12,307 bases of DNA from Candidatus Methanophagales archaeon (GTDB lineage Archaea > Halobacteriota > Syntropharchaeia > Alkanophagales > Methanospirareceae), in the NCBI GenBank assembly GCA_030612405.1, contig JAUWNY010000068.1, positions 1 to 12,307 of the forward strand, written 5' to 3'. Below the pieces are notes generated by a model. It worked only from the letters and a program-made list of their open reading frames with translations. It was not told the origin of the DNA and made no database searches. Positions 1-12,307 of this stretch are shown one piece after another. Both the position numbers and the translations under genes were made by a program. The stretch's first letter is position 1; each line of letters starts with the position of its first letter.

Positions 1-112
1 ACTGCACGTGTTTAGCAAAAAAGACGCTGAAATTCGCACTTAATGAATATAAGTAATAAGAGATAAAAGAAAGGAAAGGAAAACTAAAATAAAAGCCAAA
101 TATCAAAACCAA

Positions 113-162
113 CAAGAAAACAGAAAATAAATTATGGACACAGATTAACGCAGATTAACACA
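113..162 (+). repeat. Intergenic repeat 'module A', copy 1 (contains the tandem decamers CACAGATTAA/CGCAGATTAA)
   Basis: caagaaaacagaaaataaattatGgacacagattaacgcagattaacaca. Manual alignment gives 49/50 identity with 7596..7645. Confidence 0.9.
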
Positions 163-165
163 AAC

Positions 166-243
166 CTTTCTTTCAAAAAGAAAGCTTTACCAAAGAAATT
201 TGTTTTTCTTTTAGCACAGGTTTTCTTTTTTTGAAAAAGAAAA
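166..243. repeat. Three consecutive AT-rich hairpins built from CTTTCTTT/AAAGAAAG-type arms
   Basis: Hairpin 166-184: ctttcttt-caa-aaagaaag. Hairpin 192-211: aaagaaa-tttgtt-tttcttt. Hairpin 221-243: ttttcttttt-ttg-aaaaagaaaa. Confidence 0.7.
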
Positions 244-259
244 AGTGTTGTGTAAATCC

Positions 260-312
260 GTGTAAATCGGTGTCTTAAATAGGAGGAAGCTATAGTTTAT
301 ATACAATAAAAA
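260..312 (-). repeat. Intergenic repeat 'module B', copy 1 (TATA-containing, ends in CAC(C/G)GATTTA units)
   Basis: The reverse complement of 260..312 aligns with 11794..11846 at 48/53 positions (tttttattgtatataaa.tatagcttcct.ctatt.aagacac.gattta). Confidence 0.85.
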
Positions 313-313
313 G

Positions 314-754: not shown

Positions 755-803
755 CTTTCAGATTTTGTCCCGTGATTTTGAGCAATTAAGGTGGGGGATT
801 TTT

Positions 804-819
804 TTGTATATAAAGTATA
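804..819 (+). promoter_or_regulatory. TATA-containing 16-mer shared with module B (ttgtatataaagtata)
   Basis: Identical 16-mer at 11800..11815. tatataaa lies at 807-814, about 23 bp upstream of the middle of the left palindrome arm. Confidence 0.4.
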
Positions 820-825
820 ATTTTT

Positions 826-887
826 GCCACAGAGTACACAGAAAGCACAGAGTATTTACCCTCTGTGTCCTCTGCGGTCTCTGTGGC
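826..887. repeat. Long imperfect palindrome. Each arm holds three ~9-bp CACAGA(G/A)NN units, with an 8-nt loop.
   Basis: Left arm gccacagagtacacagaaagcacagag. Right arm ctctgtgtcctctgcggtctctgtggc. Hand pairing gives 9 bp, a 2-nt mismatch, 1 bp, a 1-nt mismatch, 4 bp, a 2-nt mismatch, then 8 bp. Loop is tatttacc. Confidence 0.85.
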
Positions 888-892
888 TATCA

Positions 893-903
893 TTTTTTTT
901 TTT
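893..903 (+). terminator. T11 run, archaeal oligo-T terminator candidate
   Basis: Eleven consecutive T immediately after the 826-887 hairpin. Confidence 0.5.
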
Positions 904-1023: not shown

Positions 1024-1050
1024 GTAAAAAAACCGCAAGTTTTATATACT
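1024..1050 (+). promoter_or_regulatory. Core promoter (A-rich BRE-like tract plus TATA tttatata at 1041-1048)
   Basis: gtaaaaaaaccgcaagttttatatact. 21/27 identical to 10008..10034 and similar to 8712..8738. Confidence 0.6.
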
Positions 1051-1087
1051 GTAAATATACAATCTACCAGCAGGAGGTAAAAAATAA

Positions 1088-1119: not shown

Positions 1120-3882
1120 ATGGCGACAAGAACGAATTCTATAAGTAGTTGTAGTGATTTCAGAATGTCGCGGCGGACGTTCACTAAACTGGCGGCTTTA
1201 GGAACGGCGGCTGCTATCAGTGGAATCGGTGAAGTCGGCGCGTATCCTACGAAGTTTGTGGATAAACTGATCGAACCCGCGAGTGCGGCTCCGGAACCGA
1301 AAGTGGATCTTGTGAGGTCTATATGCGCGCATTGTTCAGTCGGCTGTGGATTCTACGGAAAGGTCGAGGATGGCGTGTTTACGGGCATGGAGCCCTGGGA
1401 GACTCATCCGATAAATGCCGGCGGGATGTGTTCCAAGGGCGCTTCCACGAGGGAAATGGTGGTCTCAGAGAGAAGGTTGAAATATCCGATGAAAAAGGTC
1501 GGCGGTAAGTGGGAGCGAATATCGTGGGATGCTGCGTTGGACGAGATTGCATCAAAGATGGCGGAAGTGAGAAGCAAATACGGACCAGATTCGGTGATGT
1601 TCCTGGGCTCGGCAAAGATGAACAACGAAGAGTGCTATATATACAGGAAGTTAGCTGCTTTCTGGGGCACGAACAATGTTGACCATCAGGCACGAATATG
1701 CCACTCCACTACGGTCCAAGGACTGGCGAACACGTGGGGCTTCGGCGCTCAAACGAACAACATTAATGATATGAGGCACTGCAAATGCCTGTTCTTCCTT
1801 GGCTCGAATGCTGCGGAAGCACATCCAGTGGCGATGCAGCACTTCCTCGAAGCTAAGGACAGGGGTGCTAAAATAATCGTTCTGGACCCGAGACGCACAA
1901 AAACCGCATCAAAGGCGGATATATTCAGTTGGTTCAGACCAGGAACAGATATACCAATAATGCTTGGGCTCATTAATGTCATTGTGAACAACGGCTGGCA
2001 CGATGAGGAGTTCATAAAGAACAGGACTATTGGATTCGATGATTTATGGGAAGTTGCAAAGGACTACACGCCTGAAGTGGTAGAGGACATCTCCTGGGTG
2101 CCTGCTGATACAATCAGGAACATAGCACGAACGCTGTACGAGAATAAGCCATCTGCAATATTCTGGGCAATGGGGCAGACACAGCATACTGTGGGGTCGA
2201 ACAACATCCACATGTCTGCGATTCTACAATTAGTCCTTGGGCATGCTGCACGGTCAGGAGGAGGTTGCCAGGCATTAAGGGGACATGACAACGTTCAGGG
2301 CTCTACCGACATGTGCTTACTCGCGCATTTACTACCAAGTTATTACGGACTTACTGAGAAAGGTTGGAAGCACTGGTGCGAGGTATGGGGCATTCCATAC
2401 GAGGAGATGGTCGGCAGGTTTGCATCGAAGGAGTTCATGGGAAAGAATGGGTTCACAGTTGCGAGATGGTATGAGGGAGTTATTATGCCCGAATCACAAA
2501 TAGACCAGCCACATAACATAAAAATATGCCTTGTGTGGGGTGAAGCGTTAAACTCAGTCACCGAAATGAAGCGGCAGAATGAAGCAATGGAGAAGCTTGA
2601 CCTCATGGTCATCGTTAACCCGCGTGCAAGTCCCGCTTCCGCATTGCCTGAGCGGTCAGATGGTATAATACTGCTTCCTGCATGCACATCATTCGAGAAA
2701 GCGGGAAGTGTAACAACCACCGGCAGACAAGTTCAGTGGAGACATAAGATTATAGACCCGCTTTGGGAGAGTAAGTCAGACTTCGTGATATATCAGGAAC
2801 TTGCAGCGAAGTTAGAGGAGAAGACGGGATTACCATTCAAGAAATACTTCACTTACTCACGTTCAGAGGATGTTTGGCCGGAGCTAAAGGCTGGGATGTT
2901 AGTCATCGGAATGCGACAAGACCCAGAGAGGCTGAAGACGCAACAGGAGTATGATACTACCTTTGATAGGGATACGCTGTGGTCAGAAGCTCTCAAGGAA
3001 TACTGGGGACTACCATGGCCTTGCTGGAACGATACGCACTGTGGAACGCCGCTATTGTATGATGCATCGAAACCTGTAAGCAGAGGAGGACATGACTTTA
3101 GAGTGAAATGGGGCAACACCGTTCCGGAGAACAAGTTTGGTAAACACGTTGGCGAGTCAATGCTGAGAGAGGACTATCCAGTTCCTCAGTATGGTTATGC
3201 ATACGACCCAGCGGAGATAGAGCGTGCACTTGCAGATGGCGAACCACCGACAGGGAGAGGGAAAGCAAGGATATGGATTTGGACATTTGCAGACCCGATT
3301 CCAATACACAGAGAGCCGATAGAGAGCCCAAGACCAGACCTAATTGATAAGTATCCGACGTACGACGATGTAGCATTCCAATACAGAGTACCCGCACCAT
3401 ATAAATCAAATCAGCAGGCGAGAAGGAACATTGTCGATAAGTATCCAATCGTTCTTACCACGGGCAGACAGGTAGAGCACATGGGAGGAGGTGCTCAAAC
3501 AAGAGGATGCGCTTATCTTGCGGAGCTTCAGCCAGAGATGTACGTGGAGATGAACCCAAAACTTGCTAGCGAAATCGGTGTTAATGTGCATAAAACAGGA
3601 ATAACGGATGACTATGTATGGGTAGAGACGCTCAGGGGGAGATGTAAGGTCAAAGCTTATGTGACGGAAGCAGTACCATACGACGAGACGCGGAAGACGG
3701 TATTTATGCCTTACCACTGGGCAGGCATATTTGAAGGCGTGTCTTATGAGGACAGATACCCGCCAGGATGCGGTGAAATCGTAGTCGGTGATTCAGTCAA
3801 TATCATTTGCGTTGACGGGTATGACATTCACACTCAGATGCAAGAGACGAAAGTGTGCCAATGTAATATATACAGGGCATAG
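1120..3882 (+). CDS. fdhA: Tat-exported molybdopterin (bis-MGD) oxidoreductase catalytic subunit, FdnG/FdoG-like formate dehydrogenase alpha, Cys-type
   Basis: Twin-arginine motif SRRTFTKL. N-terminal FeS motif CAHCSVGCGF...CSKG. DHQARICHSTTV and GSNAAEAHPV match E. coli FdnG DNQARVUHGPTV and GNAAEAHPV, with Cys replacing Sec. LRGHDNVQGS is also present. An alternative start at ATG 1165 (MSRRTF) is possible. Confidence 0.9.
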   Translation: MATRTNSISSCSDFRMSRRTFTKLAALGTAAAISGIGEVGAYPTKFVDKLIEPASAAPEPKVDLVRSICAHCSVGCGFYGKVEDGVFTGMEPWETHPINAGGMCSKGASTREMVVSERRLKYPMKKVGGKWERISWDAALDEIASKMAEVRSKYGPDSVMFLGSAKMNNEECYIYRKLAAFWGTNNVDHQARICHSTTVQGLANTWGFGAQTNNINDMRHCKCLFFLGSNAAEAHPVAMQHFLEAKDRGAKIIVLDPRRTKTASKADIFSWFRPGTDIPIMLGLINVIVNNGWHDEEFIKNRTIGFDDLWEVAKDYTPEVVEDISWVPADTIRNIARTLYENKPSAIFWAMGQTQHTVGSNNIHMSAILQLVLGHAARSGGGCQALRGHDNVQGSTDMCLLAHLLPSYYGLTEKGWKHWCEVWGIPYEEMVGRFASKEFMGKNGFTVARWYEGVIMPESQIDQPHNIKICLVWGEALNSVTEMKRQNEAMEKLDLMVIVNPRASPASALPERSDGIILLPACTSFEKAGSVTTTGRQVQWRHKIIDPLWESKSDFVIYQELAAKLEEKTGLPFKKYFTYSRSEDVWPELKAGMLVIGMRQDPERLKTQQEYDTTFDRDTLWSEALKEYWGLPWPCWNDTHCGTPLLYDASKPVSRGGHDFRVKWGNTVPENKFGKHVGESMLREDYPVPQYGYAYDPAEIERALADGEPPTGRGKARIWIWTFADPIPIHREPIESPRPDLIDKYPTYDDVAFQYRVPAPYKSNQQARRNIVDKYPIVLTTGRQVEHMGGGAQTRGCAYLAELQPEMYVEMNPKLASEIGVNVHKTGITDDYVWVETLRGRCKVKAYVTEAVPYDETRKTVFMPYHWAGIFEGVSYEDRYPPGCGEIVVGDSVNIICVDGYDIHTQMQETKVCQCNIYRA
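1165..1287 (+). other. Tat signal peptide region of the catalytic subunit
   Basis: MSRRTFTKLAALGTAAAISG... with the RR consensus, a hydrophobic core and a candidate A-S-A cleavage site. The cleavage position is a guess. Confidence 0.6.
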
Positions 3883-3894
3883 GAGGGATAAAAA

Positions 3895-4440
3895 ATGGTA
3901 ATATATAAATTCTTACATGATGTGGACCGATGTATAGACTGTGGAGGCTGCTTTGCTGCATGCAAAGACCATAACGGTGTTCCAGAGGGTGTAGCGAGGA
4001 TACGAGTGATAAGACTTAACGAGGGAAAGCCAGGGGAAAAATACGCAGCAATGGCTTGCATGCATTGCACTGACCCCGCATGCCTGAGAGCGTGTCCTAC
4101 GAAAGCGATAACCAAGCGACCAGATGGTATTGTGATAAACGACAAAGCCAAATGCATAGGATGTGGATACTGTAGTTGGGCGTGCCCGTTCGGGGCTCCG
4201 AAGTATCCGGATAAAGGACCTGTTGAACTCAGGGGAATAATGGACAAATGCACTTTCTGCGTTGTTCCATATGAACAAGAGAAGGATGTAGCGGGGAATT
4301 TAATACAGCACGAACCAAAACCAGTATGCGTTTCCTTCTGCGCAACCAAGGCACGGCTTGCAGGGGATGTCACGGAGATAACAAAAATATATACTGCGAG
4401 AATGGCTGGGAGATTGGTGCAAAGGCAAGTGGGGGTGTAA
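3895..4440 (+). CDS. fdhB: Four-cluster [4Fe-4S] ferredoxin-type electron-transfer subunit (DmsB/FdnH-core-like, no TM helix)
   Basis: Cys groups CIDCGGCFAAC, CMHCTDPACLRACP, CIGCGYCSWACP, CTFC...CVSFC. SD aggaggg lies upstream. 12-nt gap after the alpha gene. Confidence 0.9.
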   Translation: MVIYKFLHDVDRCIDCGGCFAACKDHNGVPEGVARIRVIRLNEGKPGEKYAAMACMHCTDPACLRACPTKAITKRPDGIVINDKAKCIGCGYCSWACPFGAPKYPDKGPVELRGIMDKCTFCVVPYEQEKDVAGNLIQHEPKPVCVSFCATKARLAGDVTEITKIYTARMAGRLVQRQVGV

Positions 4441-4447
4441 ATAGAGT

Positions 4448-5422
4448 ATGAGCCACACAGCATACGTTGTATTTACAGTATTCAGTCAGATGGCAGTGGG
4501 CGCACTGATAGCAATGGTCATCGCAGACTTTCTCGCGAAGGGAAAGGAGGATGCGAAGTTCTTTGAGACCGGGGCATGGGTATGTGTCCCGGTCGCGGTT
4601 ATTGGCTTGATAGCAATGCTCTCACACGAGGCACGTCCAATCCAAGCGATGATGACGATGAACGCAAACTTAGCTACGTCGTGGCTGAGCAGAGAGTCCT
4701 TAGCATTGACGGTGTTTGTAGTCTTAGCGGTGATATATACGGTGCTGTGGCTATTTGAGCCAGAATACGGCAGTCTCAAGGGGATACCCGTAATACCCAA
4801 GATAGCAAAGTTTTTTATGCCGCTCAGGAAGGTTGTTGGAATCTTAGGTGCGGTTATGGGATTTGCGTACCTCGGTATAGGTGCAAAGGCGTACATGATG
4901 CCCACTATGCCTTCGTGGAACTTAGACACAACGCCGCTGTTCTTCCTGGTTACTACTCTACTCGTGGGCGTAACGGCAGTAGCAGCAGTTCTTTCAGCGA
5001 AATACATGCTTAAAAAAGAAACCGTGGAACGTTTTGCGAACTTTCTTTGGGCTACATGGGGAATTGCGCTGGTAATGGTAATTGTGCTGCTCTTTACACT
5101 GTTTGCAAACATATCTGCGTTACAACAAGTTGGAGTGACAGAAGCCACAACACTAGCTCAAGCGGGAACACTGGAAAACATGCTGCATGGTGATTACACC
5201 GCGCTTTTCTATGCACGAGTGGTAATAGGCGTTATTCTGACACTCGTATGCTTGACAGCGCTTGTATTGCCGCTGAAGAAGAAGGACATCTCAAAAGCAT
5301 CGGCTCTTACACTCGCAGTGTTTCTGTGTGCGCTAATCGGCGAACTTCTGGGAAGGGCGGTGTTCTTCGGTGCGAACGTGTCACTTGGTGAAGTCATGCC
5401 CTACGTGTTATCTACGATATAA
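4448..5422 (+). CDS. Integral membrane anchor subunit, DmsC-like (about 8 TM helices)
   Basis: N-terminal VVFTVFSQMAVGAL resembles DmsC PLMIFTVFGQCVAG. C-terminal GELLGRAVFFG resembles the DmsC GR..FY motif. Eight hydrophobic segments counted by eye. Starts 7 nt after the FeS gene. Confidence 0.7.
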   Translation: MSHTAYVVFTVFSQMAVGALIAMVIADFLAKGKEDAKFFETGAWVCVPVAVIGLIAMLSHEARPIQAMMTMNANLATSWLSRESLALTVFVVLAVIYTVLWLFEPEYGSLKGIPVIPKIAKFFMPLRKVVGILGAVMGFAYLGIGAKAYMMPTMPSWNLDTTPLFFLVTTLLVGVTAVAAVLSAKYMLKKETVERFANFLWATWGIALVMVIVLLFTLFANISALQQVGVTEATTLAQAGTLENMLHGDYTALFYARVVIGVILTLVCLTALVLPLKKKDISKASALTLAVFLCALIGELLGRAVFFGANVSLGEVMPYVLSTI

Positions 5423-6857: not shown

Positions 6858-7592
6858 ATGACAAGCAGTAGCATCAGCGAGGAGTTTGGATATATAATAG
6901 AAGCGTTAAAGAGAAAAATCATGCTTATTTCGGGCATTGTCATCGCTACTATGCTTCTCTCTTTTTCTTTATTGGTAGACCCCGCGTTACAGAGGATAAA
7001 ACAAGACCTCCTGCCTGCAGGCGCCACCCTCATCTATATTTCACCCGTAGAAGTGATAATGCTGAAGTTAAGGATAGCCTTGCTCACTGGCGTAATACTT
7101 GCCACTCCTGTTGTATGCTATTATGCATATAAGACATTAAAAGCGAGGTTCGGGATAAAGAGTCCAATGAAAAAAACACATCTCTTTATATTGCTTGGTT
7201 CTGCCATTTCTTTGTTCATTGCAGGGATAAGTTACGCTTACTTCCTTATGCTGCCGCTCGTTCTCCGTTATCTCAACTATATGTCATCATCAGCGGGTGT
7301 TATTGCTACCTGGTCAATCAACGAGTTCGTATTTTTTGTTGTTGTAATAACGCTCATACTGGGGTTAGCGTTTGAACTGCCTATCGTTATCGTCTTTGTC
7401 GTTTATTCCGGACTCGTCCAGGTAAACACGCTGAAGGAATACAGGCGGTACGTCCTTGTGGGAATGTTCGTTCTCGCAGCATTTTTTACACCGCCAGATG
7501 TGGTGAGTCAGCTCATTGTCGCTTTTCCTTTGATTGTTTTCTATGAGGTAGGAATAATACTTGCGAGCATTATCTCTAAGAGACGTTTGTAA
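6858..7592 (+). CDS. tatC: TatC paralogue 2, divergently transcribed from paralogue 1
   Basis: [30 protein letters not shown] matches E. coli [32 protein letters not shown] matches FEVPVAIVL. SD caggag lies upstream. Confidence 0.85.
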   Translation: [244 protein letters not shown]

Positions 7593-7595
7593 TTG

Positions 7596-7645
7596 CAAGA
7601 AAACAGAAAATAAATTATAGACACAGATTAACGCAGATTAACACA
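7596..7645 (+). repeat. Intergenic repeat 'module A', copy 2
   Basis: 49/50 identical to 113..162. Starts 4 nt after the tatC2 stop. Confidence 0.9.
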
Positions 7646-7750
7646 GATGATAAGAATCAACACGCTTAAACTACAAGAAATGGTAGTAAACATAGGATAA
7701 AATCATTAATATAACGCTGAAAATGGGTTTCTGTTATTGTTCTCTCGTGA

Positions 7751-7770
7751 AAATCTGTGTAATCTTGTGG
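7751..7770 (-). repeat. Inverted arm partner of module A copy 2 (CCACAAGATTACACAGATTT on the minus strand)
   Basis: aaatctgtgtaatcttgtgg is an imperfect reverse complement of the CACAGATTAA units at 7621-7645. A tttata box (minus strand, 7796-7791) lies about 23 bp away. Confidence 0.55.
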
Positions 7771-7796
7771 TTAATACTTTTTGGAATGACTATAAA

Positions 7797-8522
7797 TCAC
7801 AAAATCCGCCATCCGTTCGTGTACACATTAAACCGTTTATCGCGGGCGAACCCGACAAGGGTTATGCCAAATTCGGTTGCATCTCGTATTGCCTGTTCAG
7901 TAGGTGCAGAAACGCTTATGGCAACAGGGAAACCCGCAAAGAGCACCTTCTTCACGGTGGTGTGCGTTTGTCGGGAAGAAGTAACTAAAATGTTTTCAGA
8001 AATCGCTATCCCGTTTTTAATGCACGTCCCTATGAGCTTGTCTATCGCGCAATGCCTGCTAACATCTTCGATAAAGATGCCCTGTCCATTTTGATCGAAA
8101 GCCGCAACCACATGCGTGCCACCCGTCGCTTTATACAATACGCCCTCCTCTTCTAACTCTTTTACACGTTTAAACACGTCTTCGCACCTTATTTTTATCC
8201 TTGAGTTGACCTTCGAGGGCTTCCGATGGACTTCTCGCTCTAACGTAACACGTATTACATATTTCCCGGGTTTCGCCTCTTCGACATCGAGATTCGCGAT
8301 GTAAGAAGTGTCAAGCCCCTCGGAGTTCAAATGCCCGATTGCCAGCTCTTCAAAATGCGAAGGCAGGCAAAATAACTGGCTGTGTAGTTCTCCCCCTACG
8401 TCTATCCTTACTTCCGCTTCGCGAACGACAAAATCGTCTCTACGTCTTTGTAAGCATTTATCTCCAGAAACTTCGCGGATTTTCACGGGGGCAAGCGCTC
8501 CCCCCCTTTTCTTCGGGTCCAT
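7797..8522 (-). CDS. fdhD: FdhD-family formate dehydrogenase accessory sulfurtransferase
   Basis: ATGGTHVVAAF, SRHCAIDKLIG (compare GRHNAxDK), LVTSSRQTHTTVKK, VSAPTEQAIRDATEFGITLVGFAR. 241 aa. Confidence 0.85.
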   Translation of the reverse strand: MDPKKRGGALAPVKIREVSGDKCLQRRRDDFVVREAEVRIDVGGELHSQLFCLPSHFEELAIGHLNSEGLDTSYIANLDVEEAKPGKYVIRVTLEREVHRKPSKVNSRIKIRCEDVFKRVKELEEEGVLYKATGGTHVVAAFDQNGQGIFIEDVSRHCAIDKLIGTCIKNGIAISENILVTSSRQTHTTVKKVLFAGFPVAISVSAPTEQAIRDATEFGITLVGFARDKRFNVYTNGWRIL

Positions 8523-8578: not shown

Positions 8579-8738
8579 TTTGGTTAGAAGATGCAGACAA
8601 AACCTAAAACATTTAGGGAAAAAACCAAAAACCTATCAATAATTTAGAAAAAACAGTAAAAACTTCATTTTTAAAAAGAATCTTCGTTAATGTCTTATAT
8701 TCATTTGTGTCGCAAAAAATCGAAAGCTTTTTATACTG
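8579..8738. promoter_or_regulatory. Control module U2 in the fdhD / cytochrome divergent intergenic region (homologue of 901..1051)
   Basis: The collinear block 8599..8738 (140 nt) aligns with 911..1051 (141 nt) and shares all conserved sub-blocks. TATA tttttata at 8728-8735. Confidence 0.75.
8603..8617. promoter_or_regulatory. Perfect 6-3-6 palindrome CCTAAA-aca-TTTAGG (operator candidate)
   Basis: Half-sites identical to 915..929 with a different spacer. Confidence 0.6.
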
Positions 8739-8795
8739 CGTAATCCCAAAGTTACGTAACAGCGATTCTATTGGATATAGGGAGATAGAAGAAAG

Positions 8796-9929
8796 ATGCC
8801 AAAAAGAGAATACGCAAGAAGCTGTAAATCGATGAGTGCAATAGTGAAGACTGCGAAGCCAATGTTGCCCCTGCTAGTTATTGCAGTGTTAGCGGTATCG
8901 CTGGTGAGTATAGCGATAGCGGCTGAGGAAGACTTCGGCGGTTGTGAAGGCTGTCACCCGGGAATTGCCGAGAATTTTTCGACATCGCTGCACTACACCC
9001 TCAGGGGAATGCCGGCAGAGTGGGAGAAAGGTGCAGCAGGGCATTTCGGAATTGATATGGATGCGTTTTATGCAAAGGGCAACTGCACTAACTGCCATGT
9101 CAGCACCTGCGAAAAGTGCCATGAAGGAGGGCATGGTGCGGAGATAACCATAGATACATGTGACCAATGCCATTTAAAGAAGCAGGCAGGGTTTGTAGGA
9201 GATACTCCAGCACATAAAGGTACAGGACCCAACGCCGACATCCACTATGAGATGGGGCTTATATGCATAGATTGCCATACAGCGGAAGAGATGCACGGTA
9301 CTGGTGTTGAGTATAGCACGATGCTTGAAGCAGTCACGACAGAGTGTGAGGACTGCCACAACAGTCCGGGGAAGGTTGTCAAGGACATGCCCGTGACGCA
9401 GTATTCACCTGATACGCCATCGCACAAGATACACGGAGAGAAACTTGACTGTACAGCATGCCACTCAGGATGGACGCCAACATGTACAAACTGCCATATA
9501 GATATCGAGAAGCCTCCCGGGACGGCTACAGTAGTGACAGACGAGTTCTATCTTGCTAAAGGTGTTGATGGCAAGATAAAACCGTTCCTTAAAATAGCGG
9601 CTATCTATAATAACGAAACGCATACAGGATGGGCTGAATGGTTCCCTCATACAACCACAAAAGTGGCAAAAGACTGTGCATTCTGTCACGAAAACCCGGA
9701 AGTGCTCTGTGAGGGTTGCGAGGATCAAACCCCCCTCACAATGCTCGGACCCGGAGGTTCATTCATACCACAAGAGACGATAGACAAGGTTTTAGCTGTA
9801 GAAATGCCTGCGGCACCAACGGAAACACCAGCAGAACCAGCAGCAACGCCTACACCACCAGGTTTCGAACTGATATTCGCAGTGATTGCTATTGCAGTGG
9901 TTGTGCTTCTTGCAAAACGGAGACATTAG
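8796..9929 (+). CDS. Nonaheme c-type cytochrome, secreted, with Thr/Pro linker and PGF-CTERM anchor
   Basis: Nine CxxCH motifs: CEGCH, CTNCH, CEKCH, CDQCH, CIDCH, CEDCH, CTACH, CTNCH, CAFCH. N-terminal hydrophobic signal MLPLLVIAVLAVSLVSIAIAA. C-terminus PAEPAATPTPPGFELIFAVIAIAVVVLLAKRRH. Confidence 0.95.
   Translation: MPKREYARSCKSMSAIVKTAKPMLPLLVIAVLAVSLVSIAIAAEEDFGGCEGCHPGIAENFSTSLHYTLRGMPAEWEKGAAGHFGIDMDAFYAKGNCTNCHVSTCEKCHEGGHGAEITIDTCDQCHLKKQAGFVGDTPAHKGTGPNADIHYEMGLICIDCHTAEEMHGTGVEYSTMLEAVTTECEDCHNSPGKVVKDMPVTQYSPDTPSHKIHGEKLDCTACHSGWTPTCTNCHIDIEKPPGTATVVTDEFYLAKGVDGKIKPFLKIAAIYNNETHTGWAEWFPHTTTKVAKDCAFCHENPEVLCEGCEDQTPLTMLGPGGSFIPQETIDKVLAVEMPAAPTETPAEPAATPTPPGFELIFAVIAIAVVVLLAKRRH
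9858..9926 (+). other. PGF-CTERM archaeosortase-A sorting signal
   Basis: PGF, then a hydrophobic helix, then KRRH at the extreme C-terminus, preceded by a T/P-rich linker. Confidence 0.85.
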
Positions 9930-9944
9930 GTAAAAAAGAGTGTG

Positions 9945-9986
9945 AGGGTCTAAGCAATCGGCTGGACCCTTTTTTTTATTTTTTTA
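9945..9986 (+). terminator. Hairpin (agggtc/gaccct) plus T8-A-T7 terminator
   Basis: agggtctaagcaatcggctggaccctttttttttattttttt. Duplicated at 11759..11799. Confidence 0.7.
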
Positions 9987-10007: not shown

Positions 10008-10034
10008 GTAAAAAATCGGAAACCATTATATACT
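10008..10034 (+). promoter_or_regulatory. Core promoter U3 of the 426-aa gene (TATA ttatatac at 10026-10033)
   Basis: gtaaaaaatcggaaaccattatatact is 21/27 identical to 1024..1050. The downstream 15-mer agcaggaggtaaaaa (10067-10081) is identical to 1069-1083. Confidence 0.6.
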
Positions 10035-10082
10035 CTAAAATTTAAGGAAGATATTACATGTCTAATAGCAGGAGGTAAAAAT

Positions 10083-11363
10083 ATGGGTAAAAATAGAATA
10101 GTGATAACTGTTGTAGCAACAGTTATTGTTGCTGCTCTGGTTCTATCGGCTGTATCTGTTGCACAGATGCACGGTAAGGGCGGAATGCAGAGAATGGGGC
10201 CACAGCAGGCAATGGGCGTAGGGCAGGGGTTACGTCATGGAGCTGGCATGCACGGTGGTCCAGGATTTATGTATCAGAGCGGGTGTGCGTATGGCGAATA
10301 CGTAACATTTTCTGTGGATGAAACAAGCGGAATCGTTTATGACTATGGCATAGCCGGGGATCCTATGCTGACCTCCATCGAGGTCGTTGATTTTGAATAT
10401 GGCGACACAATAGTGAGTGGTGCAGTCACACGGATTATAAATGAGAATGGCTCAATAGCGATTATGTTGCACGATACGCCGTCAGCGCCGTTGAATTTTT
10501 TAGCCACAACGGATTTCACCGTTAAATTCGAGGTGGCAGACGGCGTAACGATATCAGAGGACGATACTGGTGTGAAACTCGAATCAGGCGAGGTGTCTGC
10601 ATATATCCTTGCAACTGCGCCAGCAGGCGTCACAGCACCAGCAGTAACGATATCCGGGCAAATAGTCACGATTGATGCACCTGCTAGCAGTGTAGTGCTG
10701 CTTCGAGCAGTACCTGTGATTTTTGGGTATGACGGTGCCACCATGACAATGAACAGAAACTTCGTCAGGCGGATGGTAAACGACCAAATCGGGGCTGATG
10801 TCACCATCGGTGCACAACAAAGTGCATATTGCATTTTTGATTACGCCAACCTGACTCCGATGCAGTTATCATACAACAACCGAACATGCTTTAGAATACT
10901 AAATAGAACTCCGACACAACTTAAAATCGCACTGAACTCGGATTCACCATTGGGCAGGCTGATTGGCATCAATCTCGACAATGCTTTCGGACTGCAGGAC
11001 CGTGAGACGTTGCAGATTCGATACGATGGTAGGGTTTTGCCGTGTTTATCTAATCCCGAACAGGTAATACAAGCACGTGAAACTACCTGCTGGTTAAATC
11101 GATACAACAACACAAGGGCACAGTTGATGCTATATGTAAGCAACTTTTCCGAGCATATTCTCGAAATCGAAGTTTATGAGGAGAGAGAAGAGGTGGAGCC
11201 TACTGCCGCTCCGAATGTGACTCAAACACCGACATCCACGCCATTCGAACCAACTGTGACAGAGTCACCCACACAGGACACACCAGGATTTGGTGCACTT
11301 GCAGTCGTTATGGGGGTTATCGTTGCATTAATCATGAAACGGCGTTACGGGCGTTCCAAATAA
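10083..11363 (+). CDS. Secreted PGF-CTERM surface protein of unknown function with a Met/His/Gly-rich N-terminal segment, probably a glycoprotein
   Basis: Signal/TM IVITVVATVIVAALVLSAVSVA. Then MHGKGGMQRMGPQQAMGVGQGLRHGAGMHGGPGFM. Seven N-x-S/T sequons. C-terminal T/P-rich linker plus PGFGALAVVMGVIVALIMKRRYGRSK. I recognise no family for the central domain. Confidence 0.8.
   Translation: MGKNRIVITVVATVIVAALVLSAVSVAQMHGKGGMQRMGPQQAMGVGQGLRHGAGMHGGPGFMYQSGCAYGEYVTFSVDETSGIVYDYGIAGDPMLTSIEVVDFEYGDTIVSGAVTRIINENGSIAIMLHDTPSAPLNFLATTDFTVKFEVADGVTISEDDTGVKLESGEVSAYILATAPAGVTAPAVTISGQIVTIDAPASSVVLLRAVPVIFGYDGATMTMNRNFVRRMVNDQIGADVTIGAQQSAYCIFDYANLTPMQLSYNNRTCFRILNRTPTQLKIALNSDSPLGRLIGINLDNAFGLQDRETLQIRYDGRVLPCLSNPEQVIQARETTCWLNRYNNTRAQLMLYVSNFSEHILEIEVYEEREEVEPTAAPNVTQTPTSTPFEPTVTESPTQDTPGFGALAVVMGVIVALIMKRRYGRSK
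11283..11360 (+). other. PGF-CTERM sorting signal
   Basis: TPGFGALAVVMGVIVALIMKRRYGRSK. Confidence 0.8.
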
Positions 11364-11461: not shown

Positions 11462-11743
11462 ACACACAGTAACAGACACAAGCCAAAGGATTGTGTATTC
11501 TGCCACGACAGCAAGGAAGTGCTTTGCGAGGGTTGCGAAGGTGATATTCTCGGACAAGGAGGTTCACTTATAGCTCAAGAGACGATAGACAAGATATACG
11601 GGATAGCTATGCCAACTGAAACACCAACACCAACGGTCACATCGGCTACGCCAGCAGCAACGCCTACACCACCAGGTTTCGAACTGATATTCGCAGTGAT
11701 TGCAATTGCAGTGGTTGTGCTTCTTGCAAAACGGAGACATTAG
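11462..11743 (+). pseudogene. 5'-truncated remnant of a paralogous multiheme cytochrome gene (last CxxCH, linker and PGF-CTERM)
   Basis: In-frame translation ...KDCVFCHDSKEVLCEGCEGDILGQGGSLIAQETIDK...PGFELIFAVIAIAVVVLLAKRRH parallels residues KDCAFCHENPEVLCEGCEDQ... of the 8796 gene. The frame is closed by TAG at 11444-11446 and has no ATG upstream of the homology. The ORF-track start at 11519 is a GTG inside the homology. Confidence 0.75.
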
Positions 11744-11758
11744 TTAAAAAAGAGGGTG

Positions 11759-11799
11759 AGGGTCTAAGCAATCGGCTGGACCCTTTTTTTATTTTTTTA
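11759..11799 (+). terminator. Second copy of the hairpin plus oligo-T terminator
   Basis: agggtctaagcaatcggctggaccctttttttattttttt. Confidence 0.7.
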
Positions 11800-11846
11800 T
11801 TGTATATAAAGTATAGCTTCCTTCTATTCAAGACACAGATTTATAC
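11794..11846 (+). repeat. Intergenic repeat 'module B', copy 2 (TATA tatataaa at 11803-11810)
   Basis: 48/53 identical to the reverse complement of 260..312. Confidence 0.85.
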
Positions 11847-11855
11847 AAATTAAGC

Positions 11856-11931
11856 GAGTTTAGAGGTTTAGCTCGTTAGCGGCTCAGTCCATTTGACCAA
11901 AACGCTAAACCGCTAAACCGCCAAACCGCTA
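11856..11931. repeat. Palindromic array: GTTTAG-type units (11856-11882) facing a tandem 8-bp repeat CGCTAAAC x3.6 (11903-11931)
   Basis: gagtttagaggtttagctcgttagcgg ... cgctaaac cgctaaac cgccaaac cgcta. The arms are mutually complementary in several registers. Confidence 0.8.
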
Positions 11932-11933
11932 TA

Positions 11934-11965
11934 TTATCATCTGTGTTAATCTGTGAATAATTTTT
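11934..11965 (-). repeat. Intergenic repeat 'module A', copy 3 (inverted, one decamer unit fewer)
   Basis: The reverse complement of 11934..11953 (cagattaacacagatgataa) is 20/20 identical to 7634..7653. The upstream aaaaattatt resembles aaataaattat of copies 1 and 2. Confidence 0.75.
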
Positions 11966-12307
11966 GGTAGTGTCCTAATTAAGAATAGTTAATGAAAAGA
12001 AATCGTGCCATGTCCATAGGTGGTCTGTTAATCCTTCCAACATTGCAGGTGAAGTTCTTCTTTTGAACTCATTTATGAAATTCCAGTAGAATTGAAACAG
12101 TTGGATTGAACCTTCCAATCTCCATCTCCGTTTTGAGAAACATTTTGTCTTTCGTACTAATCTACCATTCCTCTCTCGTAGTATTCCATTGAAGTTCTCA
12201 ATGTCGGTGGTTTCTATATCGCCGTGGTCGGGGTTGCCGTATATTGTCCTTTTCTCCTTACGGACGACTCTTCCCTTCTCCCTGATCTTTACAAGCTGCC
12301 CATAATC
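11966..12307 (-). mobile_element. Terminus of an IS1-family-like insertion sequence that continues beyond the window
   Basis: The outermost bases ggtagtgtcctaattaag begin like IS1 inverted repeats (GGTA/GATG...). The transposase stop codon lies inside this terminal segment, as in IS1. Confidence 0.55.
11975..12307 (-). CDS. C-terminal part of an IS1-family-like DDE transposase (5' end outside the window)
   Basis: My own minus-strand translation: ...TTDIENFNGILRERNGRLVRKTKCFSKRRWRLEGSIQLFQFYWNF.... The pattern T-x2-IE-x2-N-x2-LR-x4-RL-x-RK-x3-FSK matches E. coli InsB [28 protein letters not shown]. This ORF is absent from the supplied ORF track because it has no start codon in the window. Confidence 0.65.
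   Translation of the reverse strand, partial: DYGQLVKIREKGRVVRKEKRTIYGNPDHGDIETTDIENFNGILRERNGRLVRKTKCFSKRRWRLEGSIQLFQFYWNFINEFKRRTSPAMLEGLTDHLWTWHDFFSLTILN

Follow-up and report, generated by a model that had tools for sequence, protein, structure and literature searches.

A large modular intergenic repeat family of ANME-1 archaea that may supply promoters and terminators to neighbouring genes

Described intergenic repeats and the ANME-1 repeat

The Correia elements (CREE) of Neisseria are hairpin repeats of ~100-200 nt that occur in more than 100 copies per genome, lie upstream of genes, carry outward promoters, can be co-transcribed with their neighbours and differ between strains (PMC10969869). 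Together with the mosaic BIME/BOX/SPRITE repeats, of which the pneumococcal SPRITE is terminator-like (PMC10969869), they are the closest analogues of the intergenic repeat described here from ANME-1 archaea. Like a Correia element, the ANME-1 repeat is dispersed, intergenic and hairpin-forming and sits immediately upstream of genes, with a promoter that, judged from its position, points outward. Correia elements, however, have true terminal inverted repeats, a TA target duplication, sigma-70 promoters and an IHF site, whereas the ANME-1 repeat has non-terminal arrays of 10-nt units, no duplication that could be seen and an archaeal TATA promoter predicted to give leaderless or short-leader mRNAs. 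With BIME/REP and BOX/RUP/SPRITE it shares a small set of modules in varied order and orientation, clustered or nested copies and terminator-like modules; REPs differ in being GC-rich palindromes of 20-40 nt linked to RAYT transposases, where the ANME-1 units are AT-rich decamer arrays accompanied by a promoter block.

Among archaea, the MITEs of Sulfolobus (SM1-4), Halobacterium and Haloquadratum are small non-coding dispersed repeats (PMC10969869). Unlike the ANME-1 repeat, those elements carry terminal inverted repeats matching known IS as well as target duplications, and none has been reported from ANME-1 or with a promoter cassette. In Pyrococcus furiosus, dRNA-seq has shown that a symmetric TATA can fire both ways, the product being a short divergent RNA, or an antisense one where the gene upstream lies head-to-tail (PMC6640164). 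Pyrococcus uses one shared TATA with starts ~50 bp apart, whereas the ANME-1 unit has two interleaved TATA-like boxes 13 nt apart, each predicted start lying just beyond the other box, and a built-in hairpin and T tract on the leftward side. Searches of the published literature by sequence and by topic found no description of this repeat family, and a paper on ANME-1 genome variation makes no mention of such repeats (PMC13385816). Judged from sequence, our best reading is a new Correia/BIME-like mosaic repeat that would supply both promoters and terminators.

Anatomy and distribution of the repeat family

The stretch of DNA analysed as a whole (the window) comprises 12,307 nt of contig JAUWNY010000068.1. 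It is archaeal, with genes for an Lrp/AsnC regulator (314-754), for a molybdopterin oxidoreductase and its Fe-S and DmsC/NrfD subunits (1120-5422), and for TatA, two TatC, FdhD and two multihaem/PGF-CTERM proteins. Its DmsC-like protein has close homologues under the name Methanophagales, and the identical Lrp protein is encoded in the NCBI MAG GCA_028571495.1 and on a 39.5-kb ENA contig (L001), on which window position 1 corresponds to position 9688. A first-pass annotation had named three hairpin-forming loci (113-313, 7596-7796 and 11794-11965; copies 1, 2 and 3 below), all of which we recovered at those positions with TATA-like boxes and T-rich far ends. Over 50 nt, module A of copies 1 and 2 (113-162 and 7596-7645) shows 98% identity, which is the 49/50 that had been claimed, and module B of copies 1 and 3 (255-315 vs 11791-11851) is 87% complementary over 61 nt, against an earlier figure of 48/53. 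The count of three was too low: four copies are present in the window, and L001 carries a fifth immediately upstream of it (Table 1). Decamers resembling CACAGATTAA with at most two mismatches number 26 in the window, compared with 14.0 ± 3.6 in shuffled sequence (0 of 200 shuffles reach 26), and they concentrate in the named loci. The proposed hairpin formation by the arms holds well for copies 1 and 3, which fold at z −6.8 and z −7.0 against shuffles, as does the family consensus at z −6.3 (z −6.2 to −7.4 when either strand of these three is folded), but poorly for copy 2 (z −2.5).

Table 1. Parts of the repeat copies in the window and on the overlapping contig L001
Feature	Position	Strand	Remarks
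Copy 1 left strip CAAGAAAACAGAAAATAAATTATGGA	113..138	+	A-rich on +, T-rich on −; 98% identical to 7596-7621
Copy 1 left arm GA-CACAGATTAA-CGCAGATTAA-CACA	137..162	+	exact 24-mer in at least 110 contigs among the matches listed
Copy 1 core B	163..246	.	two small A/T hairpins; T5-T7 runs, both strands
Copy 1 right arm, inverted CACCGATTTA and CACGGATTTA decamers	245..274	-	pairs with 137-162 in the fold
Copy 1 promoter block (putative) CTTAAATAGGAGGAAGCTATAGTTTATATACAA	274..306	+	conserved in ~100 copies
Copy 4 remnant of putative promoter block, TTATACTTTATATACAA on − (TATATAAAG on +)	803..825	-	without TTAAATAG
Copy 4 hairpin, CACAGAG-type 9-mers 826-887, then T11 893-903	826..903	+	−37.8 kcal/mol, z −9.0
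Copy 2, entire	7577..7800	.	224-nt segment; related ANME-1 genomes lack it at the orthologous TatC/FdhD junction
Copy 2 left strip, three decamers and first half of canonical loop (GATGATAAGAATCAACACGCTTAAACTA)	7596..7673	+	nhmmer, model 3-77, E 7e-17
Copy 2 T-type right module: inverse of AACCACAAGATTACACAGATTTTCACGAGAG, T5 7778-7782, GGAATGACTATAA	7740..7800	-	in 25 other loci
Copy 3 (inverted) putative promoter block, TTATTGTATATAAAGTATAGCTTCCTTCTATTCAAG on +	11798..11832	-	87% complementary to 255-315; nhmmer model 73-135
Copy 3 arms 11831-11853 and 11934-11955 around core C	11831..11955	-	fold z −7.0
Copy 3 left-strip remnant AATAATTTTT	11956..11966	-	truncated by IS1-like element; IS boundary common to L054
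Copy 5	L001 8434-8547		just upstream of the window

The multi-copy family recognised in the first-pass annotation is real and far larger than three copies. In a collection with one genome per species, the exact left-arm 24-mer CACAGATTAACNCAGATTAACACA occurs in at least 110 contigs among the matches listed; within the same matches nearly all carriers are ANME-1, Methanophagales or Syntrophoarchaeum MAGs, and the density reaches at least 10-15 loci per ANME-1 genome. Searching 711 kb with nhmmer and a profile HMM built for the unit gave 256 hits (182 merged intervals, 64 full length), many of them at contig ends, as expected of a repeat that breaks assemblies. All of these loci belong to one very large, undescribed and lineage-specific family of modular repeats, which occupy intergenic spacers in the methane-oxidising ANME-1 archaea and their relatives (class Syntrophoarchaeia).

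The canonical unit of ~135 nt consists of an A-rich strip, three CRCNGATTAA decamers, a loop or core, three inverted CRCNGATTTA decamers and a 33-nt block, CTTAAATAGAAGGAAGTTATACTTTATATACAA; whole units span 90-200 nt, and their arms are AT-rich arrays of 10-nt units. Alignment of 32 canonical copies extends from AAAATAAATTATnGA to TATACAA with unrelated flanking sequence, so that the borders are sharp (AAAATAAATT on the left, TATACAA on the right). Left strips of the copy 1 type form the conserved left border of this alignment. The A-rich strip, often preceded by (A)CAAGAAAA(CAGAAA), is followed by the left array CACAGATTAA CGCAGATTAA CACAGAT, the loop GATAAGAATCAACACGGTTAAACTAAAATAA, then ATCTGCGTAAATCAGTGTAAATCTGTGTC and finally the 33-nt block. 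In 39 of 52 full units the left neighbour gene is co-directional with the unit, and its stop codon typically falls ~−14 to +40 nt from the left border, with a tail to ~400 nt.

Several known element types were considered for these copies. Rfam 15, searched over the window at E up to 1, gave no match at any copy (one PYLIS_2 match lies inside a gene and is put down to chance), ARAGORN found neither tRNA nor tmRNA in the window, and copy number, context and the 10-nt unit size led us to reject a replication origin or CRISPR. A search of IMG/VR with the 24-mer, made with a viral origin in mind, gave 0 hits.

The same 24-mer is also present at ~20 loci of unrelated bacteria among the matches listed, as single loci that are often inverted arrays; a Bacteroides isolate (Bacteroides sp. 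224) carries one perfect palindrome with 26-nt arms. Genes neighbouring these bacterial arrays are diverse, and the arrays have no Rfam match. Perfect tandem decamers in bacteria could be chance occurrences in 596 Gb; the imperfect ones and their inverted partners are less readily accounted for.

The 33-nt block and gene boundaries

Among 92 copies of the right block, 71 have a same-direction ORF of at least 60 aa that starts no more than 150 nt away, and in ~47 an ATG lies 0-30 nt past the CAA with a mode of 7-11 nt; in six copies it follows at 0 nt, reading TATACAATG. Shine-Dalgarno sequences occur in leaders of at least 19 nt and not in shorter ones. The ATGs after the block are real starts, since the Pfam matches of 10 downstream proteins (class I LysRS, IPMDH, EPSP synthase, ICDH, ASADH, AtpF, Rpo7, SecF, corrin methylase and FecCD) begin at residue 1-11 and profile position 1-6; the functions of these 10 genes are unrelated and housekeeping. 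The Pfam match of the Lrp protein in the window begins at residue 1. Furthermore, four tRNA genes follow the block, with TTAAATAG ending 36-60 nt and TTTATATA ending 15, 20, 28 and 39 nt upstream of the mature 5′ end. As a rightward TATA box TTTATATA, the box of the first-pass annotation, was rejected, as ATGs and two of the tRNA 5′ ends are only 9-20 nt away, which is too close in two of the four tRNAs. The start codons and tRNA genes 0-30 nt past the CAA point to TTAAATAG as the rightward TATA box. On this positional evidence we take the 33-nt block to be the promoter of the adjacent gene, with TTAAATAG as its TATA box and a predicted start at CA|A 24 nt downstream; leaderless mRNAs, mRNAs with leaders of 7-30 nt and tRNA precursors would be its products.

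The TATA spacing, the YR start and the AT-rich −11 to −2 stretch of this predicted promoter, which is filled by ACTTTATATA, fit the archaeal consensus of a TATA at −30 to −23, an AT-rich −11 to −2 and a YR start (PMC6640164), and TTTATATA occupies −10 to −3. A purine-rich BRE (RRAAA) is absent upstream of the rightward TATA, where the right-arm end CTGTGTC takes its site. Scanning for sigma-70 promoters and GC-rich terminators, which are not relevant to an archaeon, gave no more than the shuffle expectation. An operator for the adjacent Lrp/AsnC regulator was rejected because in many genomes the unit stands ahead of tRNA genes and unrelated housekeeping genes, and a 5′-UTR riboregulator was rejected because start codons 0-30 nt past the block place the hairpin upstream of the start site.

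The individual copies in the window illustrate how such a block may be combined with other parts. Copy 1 is a full unit with a terminator-like core that would likely end the NifU transcript and promote Lrp with a leader of 8-9 nt, its TATA(+) lying at 275-282, a second TATA-like box at 296-303, the predicted start at A305/306 and the Lrp/AsnC ATG at 314. Its core B is found in 31 other loci at 90-100% identity and has sequence features of a two-way terminator. Copy 4 is situated downstream of the Lrp gene, and its hairpin and T11, the former recurring in two loci (L076 and L092) at 92% identity, likely form the terminator of Lrp. Copy 2, in which only 66 nt of the middle are unique, combines a left half with a T-type end that contains the FdhD stop codon (7797-7799); it lies where TatC and FdhD converge, has a T tract at each outer side and would likely serve as a two-way terminator without a promoter. 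Copy 3 is likely an orphan, inverted, with no gene in the rightward sense of its block to serve, and with its left strip cut by an IS1-family element; the IS1-like fragment beside it was recognised via a full copy in L054 and has no Pfam or NCBIfam match. The core C of copy 3 contains an 8-mer tandem repeat (11899-11930) and recurs in four loci (L070, L014, L032 and L056).

Runs of T differ among the copies in strand and side. In the canonical unit the stretch just past the hairpin is T-rich (at least 5 of 8 T) on the − strand only (TTTATTTT), copy 4 has its T11 on the + strand, copy 2 has T-rich tracts on both sides (the T5 and the left strip), and those of core B lie on both strands. On its + strand the canonical unit lacks a T run, which leaves termination of the upstream gene unaccounted for.

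We propose that the copies are gene-boundary cassettes, each with a promoter and often a terminator, that behave as modular repeats in being gained, lost and swapped, and that they are not guide-RNA genes, a reading towards which the sequence evidence leads us to lean. A full unit would usually fill the entire spacer between two same-direction genes, running from the A-rich strip at the upstream stop through the CRCNGATTAA array, an exchangeable core and the inverted array to the 33-nt putative promoter block. The perfect TTTATATA at −10 could also load TBP for the opposite strand. As the upstream gene is co-directional and its stop lies near the left border, a leftward transcript would be antisense to that gene unless ended at the T strip, and the hairpin and T-rich strip may therefore stop it before the upstream gene is reached, giving a self-insulated promoter. 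Cores with T runs on two strands, as in copy 1, and T-type right ends, as in copy 2, may terminate neighbouring genes. Insertion or recombination would account for the gain, loss and exchange of units and half-units between lineages. Less easily reconciled with the cassette are the mismatch at the BRE site, the lack of a T run on the + strand of the canonical unit, the spacing from the second TATA to the hairpin, which differs among subtypes, and searches that found neither a target-site duplication nor a mobilising enzyme.

Arm pairing, turnover and the leftward strand

The first-pass annotation had named arm complementarity without compensatory changes as an outcome that would speak against its structured elements, and compensation did not appear in 37 distinct arm pairs, in which 82.4% of cells pair as against 81.7% with shuffled partners, a comparison in which the left arm is nearly invariant, partly from how the copies were collected. 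Five arm columns are mostly unpaired, reflecting an A.A at decamer position 9 (left TTAA, right TTTA) and the free position 4, which varies without compensation (the middle decamer is paired in just 13-16% of copies), and 10 of 29 pairs depart through unpaired cells alone. The conserved feature is not the arm pairing, it is the motif CRCNGATTWA. Copies with only a right arm or only a left arm are common, the right-arm-only ones keeping their decamers beside the TATA box, and arm lengths are loosely matched (3x3 in 25 of 71 copies, with r = 0.13 between unit numbers). At a NarJ-like promoter, one GTAATCTGTGG box abutting the TATA is common to L001 and the related cluster L117, and the sequence upstream differs, that of L001 being ~100 nt longer. 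The right-arm-only copies and this single box both suit a site for DNA binding better than a hairpin.

The missing covariation, the half-units, the loose arm lengths and the NarJ-like box make DNA binding the main rival to the cassette, namely that the decamer arrays are sites for a protein (a global regulator, a chromatin protein or a roadblock) that activates, represses or insulates the promoter, with the hairpin as a by-product. The conserved motif, the persistence of copies with the promoter-proximal array only, the single box kept at the NarJ-like TATA, the weak correlation of unit numbers and a 10-nt period of one helical turn, which would put the sites on one face of the helix, all agree with it. 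We nevertheless regard it as unlikely, given that no candidate protein has been identified, that a systematic difference between TTAA on the left and TTTA on the right is unexpected for identical sites, that arrays also stand between convergent genes with no promoter near (copy 2), and that unrelated housekeeping genes downstream do not make up a specific regulon.

The exchange of parts that the gene-boundary cassette would involve can be followed in the genomes themselves. A GC-rich 48-nt insert is found in seven loci, always at the identical place in the left arm. Between two near-identical strains the entire right half has been swapped, the breakpoints falling in the loop and at the predicted start site, and left half, right half, cores B and C, T-type end and GC-rich insert are combined in various ways. 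The cores, which had been put forward as variable and possibly guide-like, recur in other loci; the centres are recurrent modules, not guides.

BLAST of flank against flank among the loci gave few pairs that could be used to look for empty sites; informative orthologous clusters of related ANME-1 were obtained via the DmsC-like protein, which is 88% identical in L117 and 84% in L118. In both, TatC and FdhD overlap at their 3′ ends and GCATTATCTC and AAAATCC are contiguous; the window has a clean extra 224 nt between these two words, with new stop codons for TatC and FdhD and only an imperfect ATCTC/ATCAC at the insertion flanks. Copies 1 and 4 and most of copy 5 are missing in L117, L118 and a third cluster, L120, copy 1 together with a NifU gene, so that copies 1, 2 and 4 are all lacking in the orthologous cluster of related ANME-1 species. 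L117 and L118 have one canonical unit each, elsewhere in 21 kb, and L120 has none. A target-site duplication could not be detected in 54 full units: the two flanks of a unit have a longest word in common of 4.83 nt, compared with 4.65 ± 0.14 nt for shuffled pairs. This puts recombination on a par with transposition as the route of spread.

These comparisons bear on the suggestion that the elements are MITE-like. Their dispersal and their presence or absence between related species support it, but two marks of MITEs in the strict sense, a target-site duplication and inverted repeats at the termini, were not found. Taken to its end, the suggestion is a purely selfish non-autonomous transposon without host function, whose association with gene starts reflects tolerated insertion sites. 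High copy number, dispersed and lineage-specific occurrence, inverted arrays that resemble subterminal transposase-binding repeats, a left end with stop codons in all frames and the breaking of contigs at copies are all in keeping with such an element. It is improbable, however, in view of the missing duplication, the conserved non-palindromic blocks outside both arms (AAAATAAATTATnGA on the left, the 33-nt block on the right), which prevent the inverted repeats from being terminal, and recombination that exchanges half-units; the distances to start codons are also too sharply distributed for passive tolerance. No autonomous IS with matching ends was seen in ~750 kb, the IS1-like element by copy 3 having unrelated termini, and no mobilising enzyme for the repeat was identified.

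Archaeal TATA boxes can fire in both directions (PMC6640164), and in the cassette the box TTTATATA reads leftwards as TATATAAAG, 22-23 nt away from where the hairpin starts. Its type is that of the TATA of ordinary promoters in the window, e.g. GTTTTATATAC at 1024-1055, 8711-8742 and 10008-10039. The leftward sequence beyond the hairpin is TCTATAATTTATTTT(CTGTTTTCTTG), and the spacing from the second TATA to the hairpin varies by subtype (12, 22 and 29 nt). The geometry of the first-pass annotation, with a box ~23 nt away from where the arm starts and a T-rich stretch past the far arm, is sound and makes a short leftward hairpin RNA plausible, but the block as we read it would drive the neighbouring gene in the other direction. 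That the repeat is a stand-alone small-RNA gene, in which TATATAAAG drives a ~90-150-nt hairpin RNA (~130-150 nt in the original proposal) ending at the T-rich tract with a trans-acting centre, e.g. a guide, is an improbable explanation, for although the 22-23-nt TATA spacing, the T-rich tract (7/8 T), the strong folds (z −6 to −9), the likeness of TTATATAC to the TATA of bona fide window promoters and copies 3 and 4 without a protein gene to serve in the other direction accord with it, the centres are shared by many copies and genomes, mismatches are fixed without covariation, half-units lacking a partner arm are common, Rfam offers no match, and the block is precisely placed upstream of real start codons with the TATATAAAG box at the −10 of the predicted rightward promoter.

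A bolder form of the cassette is possible, if doubtful. In this form a self-propagating, self-insulated cassette would stand at the 5′ boundaries of a sizeable fraction of ANME-1 genes, with twin interleaved TATAs that fire in opposite directions, one yielding a leaderless mRNA and the other a short hairpin RNA, and a dedicated factor would recognise the hairpin or the decamer arrays; the same arrays in unrelated bacteria would then point to a cross-domain partner.

ANME-1 archaea are uncultured and genetically intractable, and their gene punctuation and regulation are almost unstudied. If the proposed reading is correct, the repeat supplies a promoter, and often a terminator, for about one gene every few kb, so that its copies would provide a map of transcription-unit boundaries, and leaderless mRNAs are predicted. 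The family also explains the fragmentation of ANME-1 assemblies, in which many contigs end inside copies. Furthermore, it would represent a natural case of mobile promoters rewiring expression between close lineages. Finally, genetic tools to be developed for ANME-1 could draw on the 33-nt block and the hairpin as obvious components.

Sequences inserted in and beside the repeats

Copy 3, an inverted copy of the ANME-1 intergenic hairpin repeat, is adjoined by an IS1-family element whose terminus is GGTAGTGTCC and whose InsB-like C-terminus continues past the window edge. A 110-aa fragment of this element gave no match to Pfam or NCBIfam; a complete copy is listed in the table below, together with the other features and the numbered loci (L) compared. 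Arrays of the GGTTTAGCGG type, longer than the tandem 8-mer within the core of copy 3, were observed in L096. Within the left arm of the repeat family a GC-rich 48-nt insert, CGCTCGTGGGCTCTGCCCACGTCCCCGCAAGCCCAGAAAGGGCTTAAT, occupies a single fixed position and contains two small hairpins, and it looks like a nested mini-element. At the end of one public MAG contig (L009, ~4510-4549) we also observed an Illumina adapter (AGATCGGAAGAGCACACGTCTGAACTCCAGTCAC) immediately after a repeat copy.

Locations of the features in the window and in the compared loci
Feature	Location	Strand	Remark
IS1-family insertion sequence	window 11960-12307	-	adjoins copy 3
Complete copy of IS1-family element	L054 4435-5470		ORFs: InsA-like 161 aa, InsB-like 168 aa
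48-nt insert sites	L087 4874, L067 130, L110 3112, L021 4638, L070 3651, L076 4307, L090 778		upstream regions
Tandem 8-mer (A)AACCGCT x3	window 11899-11930		copy 3 core
Acylphosphatase-like conserved gene	L050 1355-1867	-	
Loci with same flank as L050 gene	L017, L029, L030, L037, L045, L055, L059, L075		
Bacterial decamer arrays	L011, L015, L018, L020, L039, L044, L046, L048, L052, L061, L062, L079, L095, L098, L109, L111, L112		
AAAAA(A)CCnnAAG-TTTTATATAC promoter motif	window 1024-1055, 8711-8742, 10008-10039		
Conserved Shine-Dalgarno leader	window 1063-1083, 10061-10081		respiratory-cluster genes
NifU region compared	window 1-56 and L001 9342-9743 vs L117 5880-5921		

Decamer arrays in coding sequence and in bacteria

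The decamer array directly encodes the C-terminal end (...KTQINAD*, L050) of a conserved gene whose N-terminus resembles acylphosphatase, read as AAG ACA CAG ATT AAC GCA GAT TAA, and this gene is found in Methanoperedens and ANME-1 MAGs alike. The array (CCACAGATTAACACAGATTAA...) is also present in unrelated bacteria, one per genome, and in many cases an inverted partner lies within 20-60 nt of it. In Bacteroides sp. 224 (L018) the arms are perfect over 26 nt and identical to the ANME-1 left arm. The genes flanking these bacterial arrays are diverse, and the arrays matched no Rfam family.

Gene content and promoters of the respiratory cluster

In the window lineage NifU sits between the NarJ-like and Lrp genes; in the related ANME-1 contigs L117 and L118 it is reduced to a 10-codon remnant, and L120 has none. 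The multihaem/PGF-CTERM gene is duplicated in its 3′ portion, together with its terminator (window 9667-9984 and 11484-11798, 76-92% identity). A longer gene following 10083-11363 may have been interrupted, with the 74-aa ORF at 11519-11743 as its tail. A weak match to PYLIS_2, the pyrrolysine insertion element, inside the DmsC-like gene (4487-4585) scores 20.4 bits, below the gathering threshold of 36, with E 0.53, and is most likely due to chance. The respiratory-cluster genes have in common a separate promoter motif, AAAAA(A)CCnnAAG-TTTTATATAC, as well as the conserved Shine-Dalgarno leader, and could form a regulon of the local Lrp/AsnC protein.
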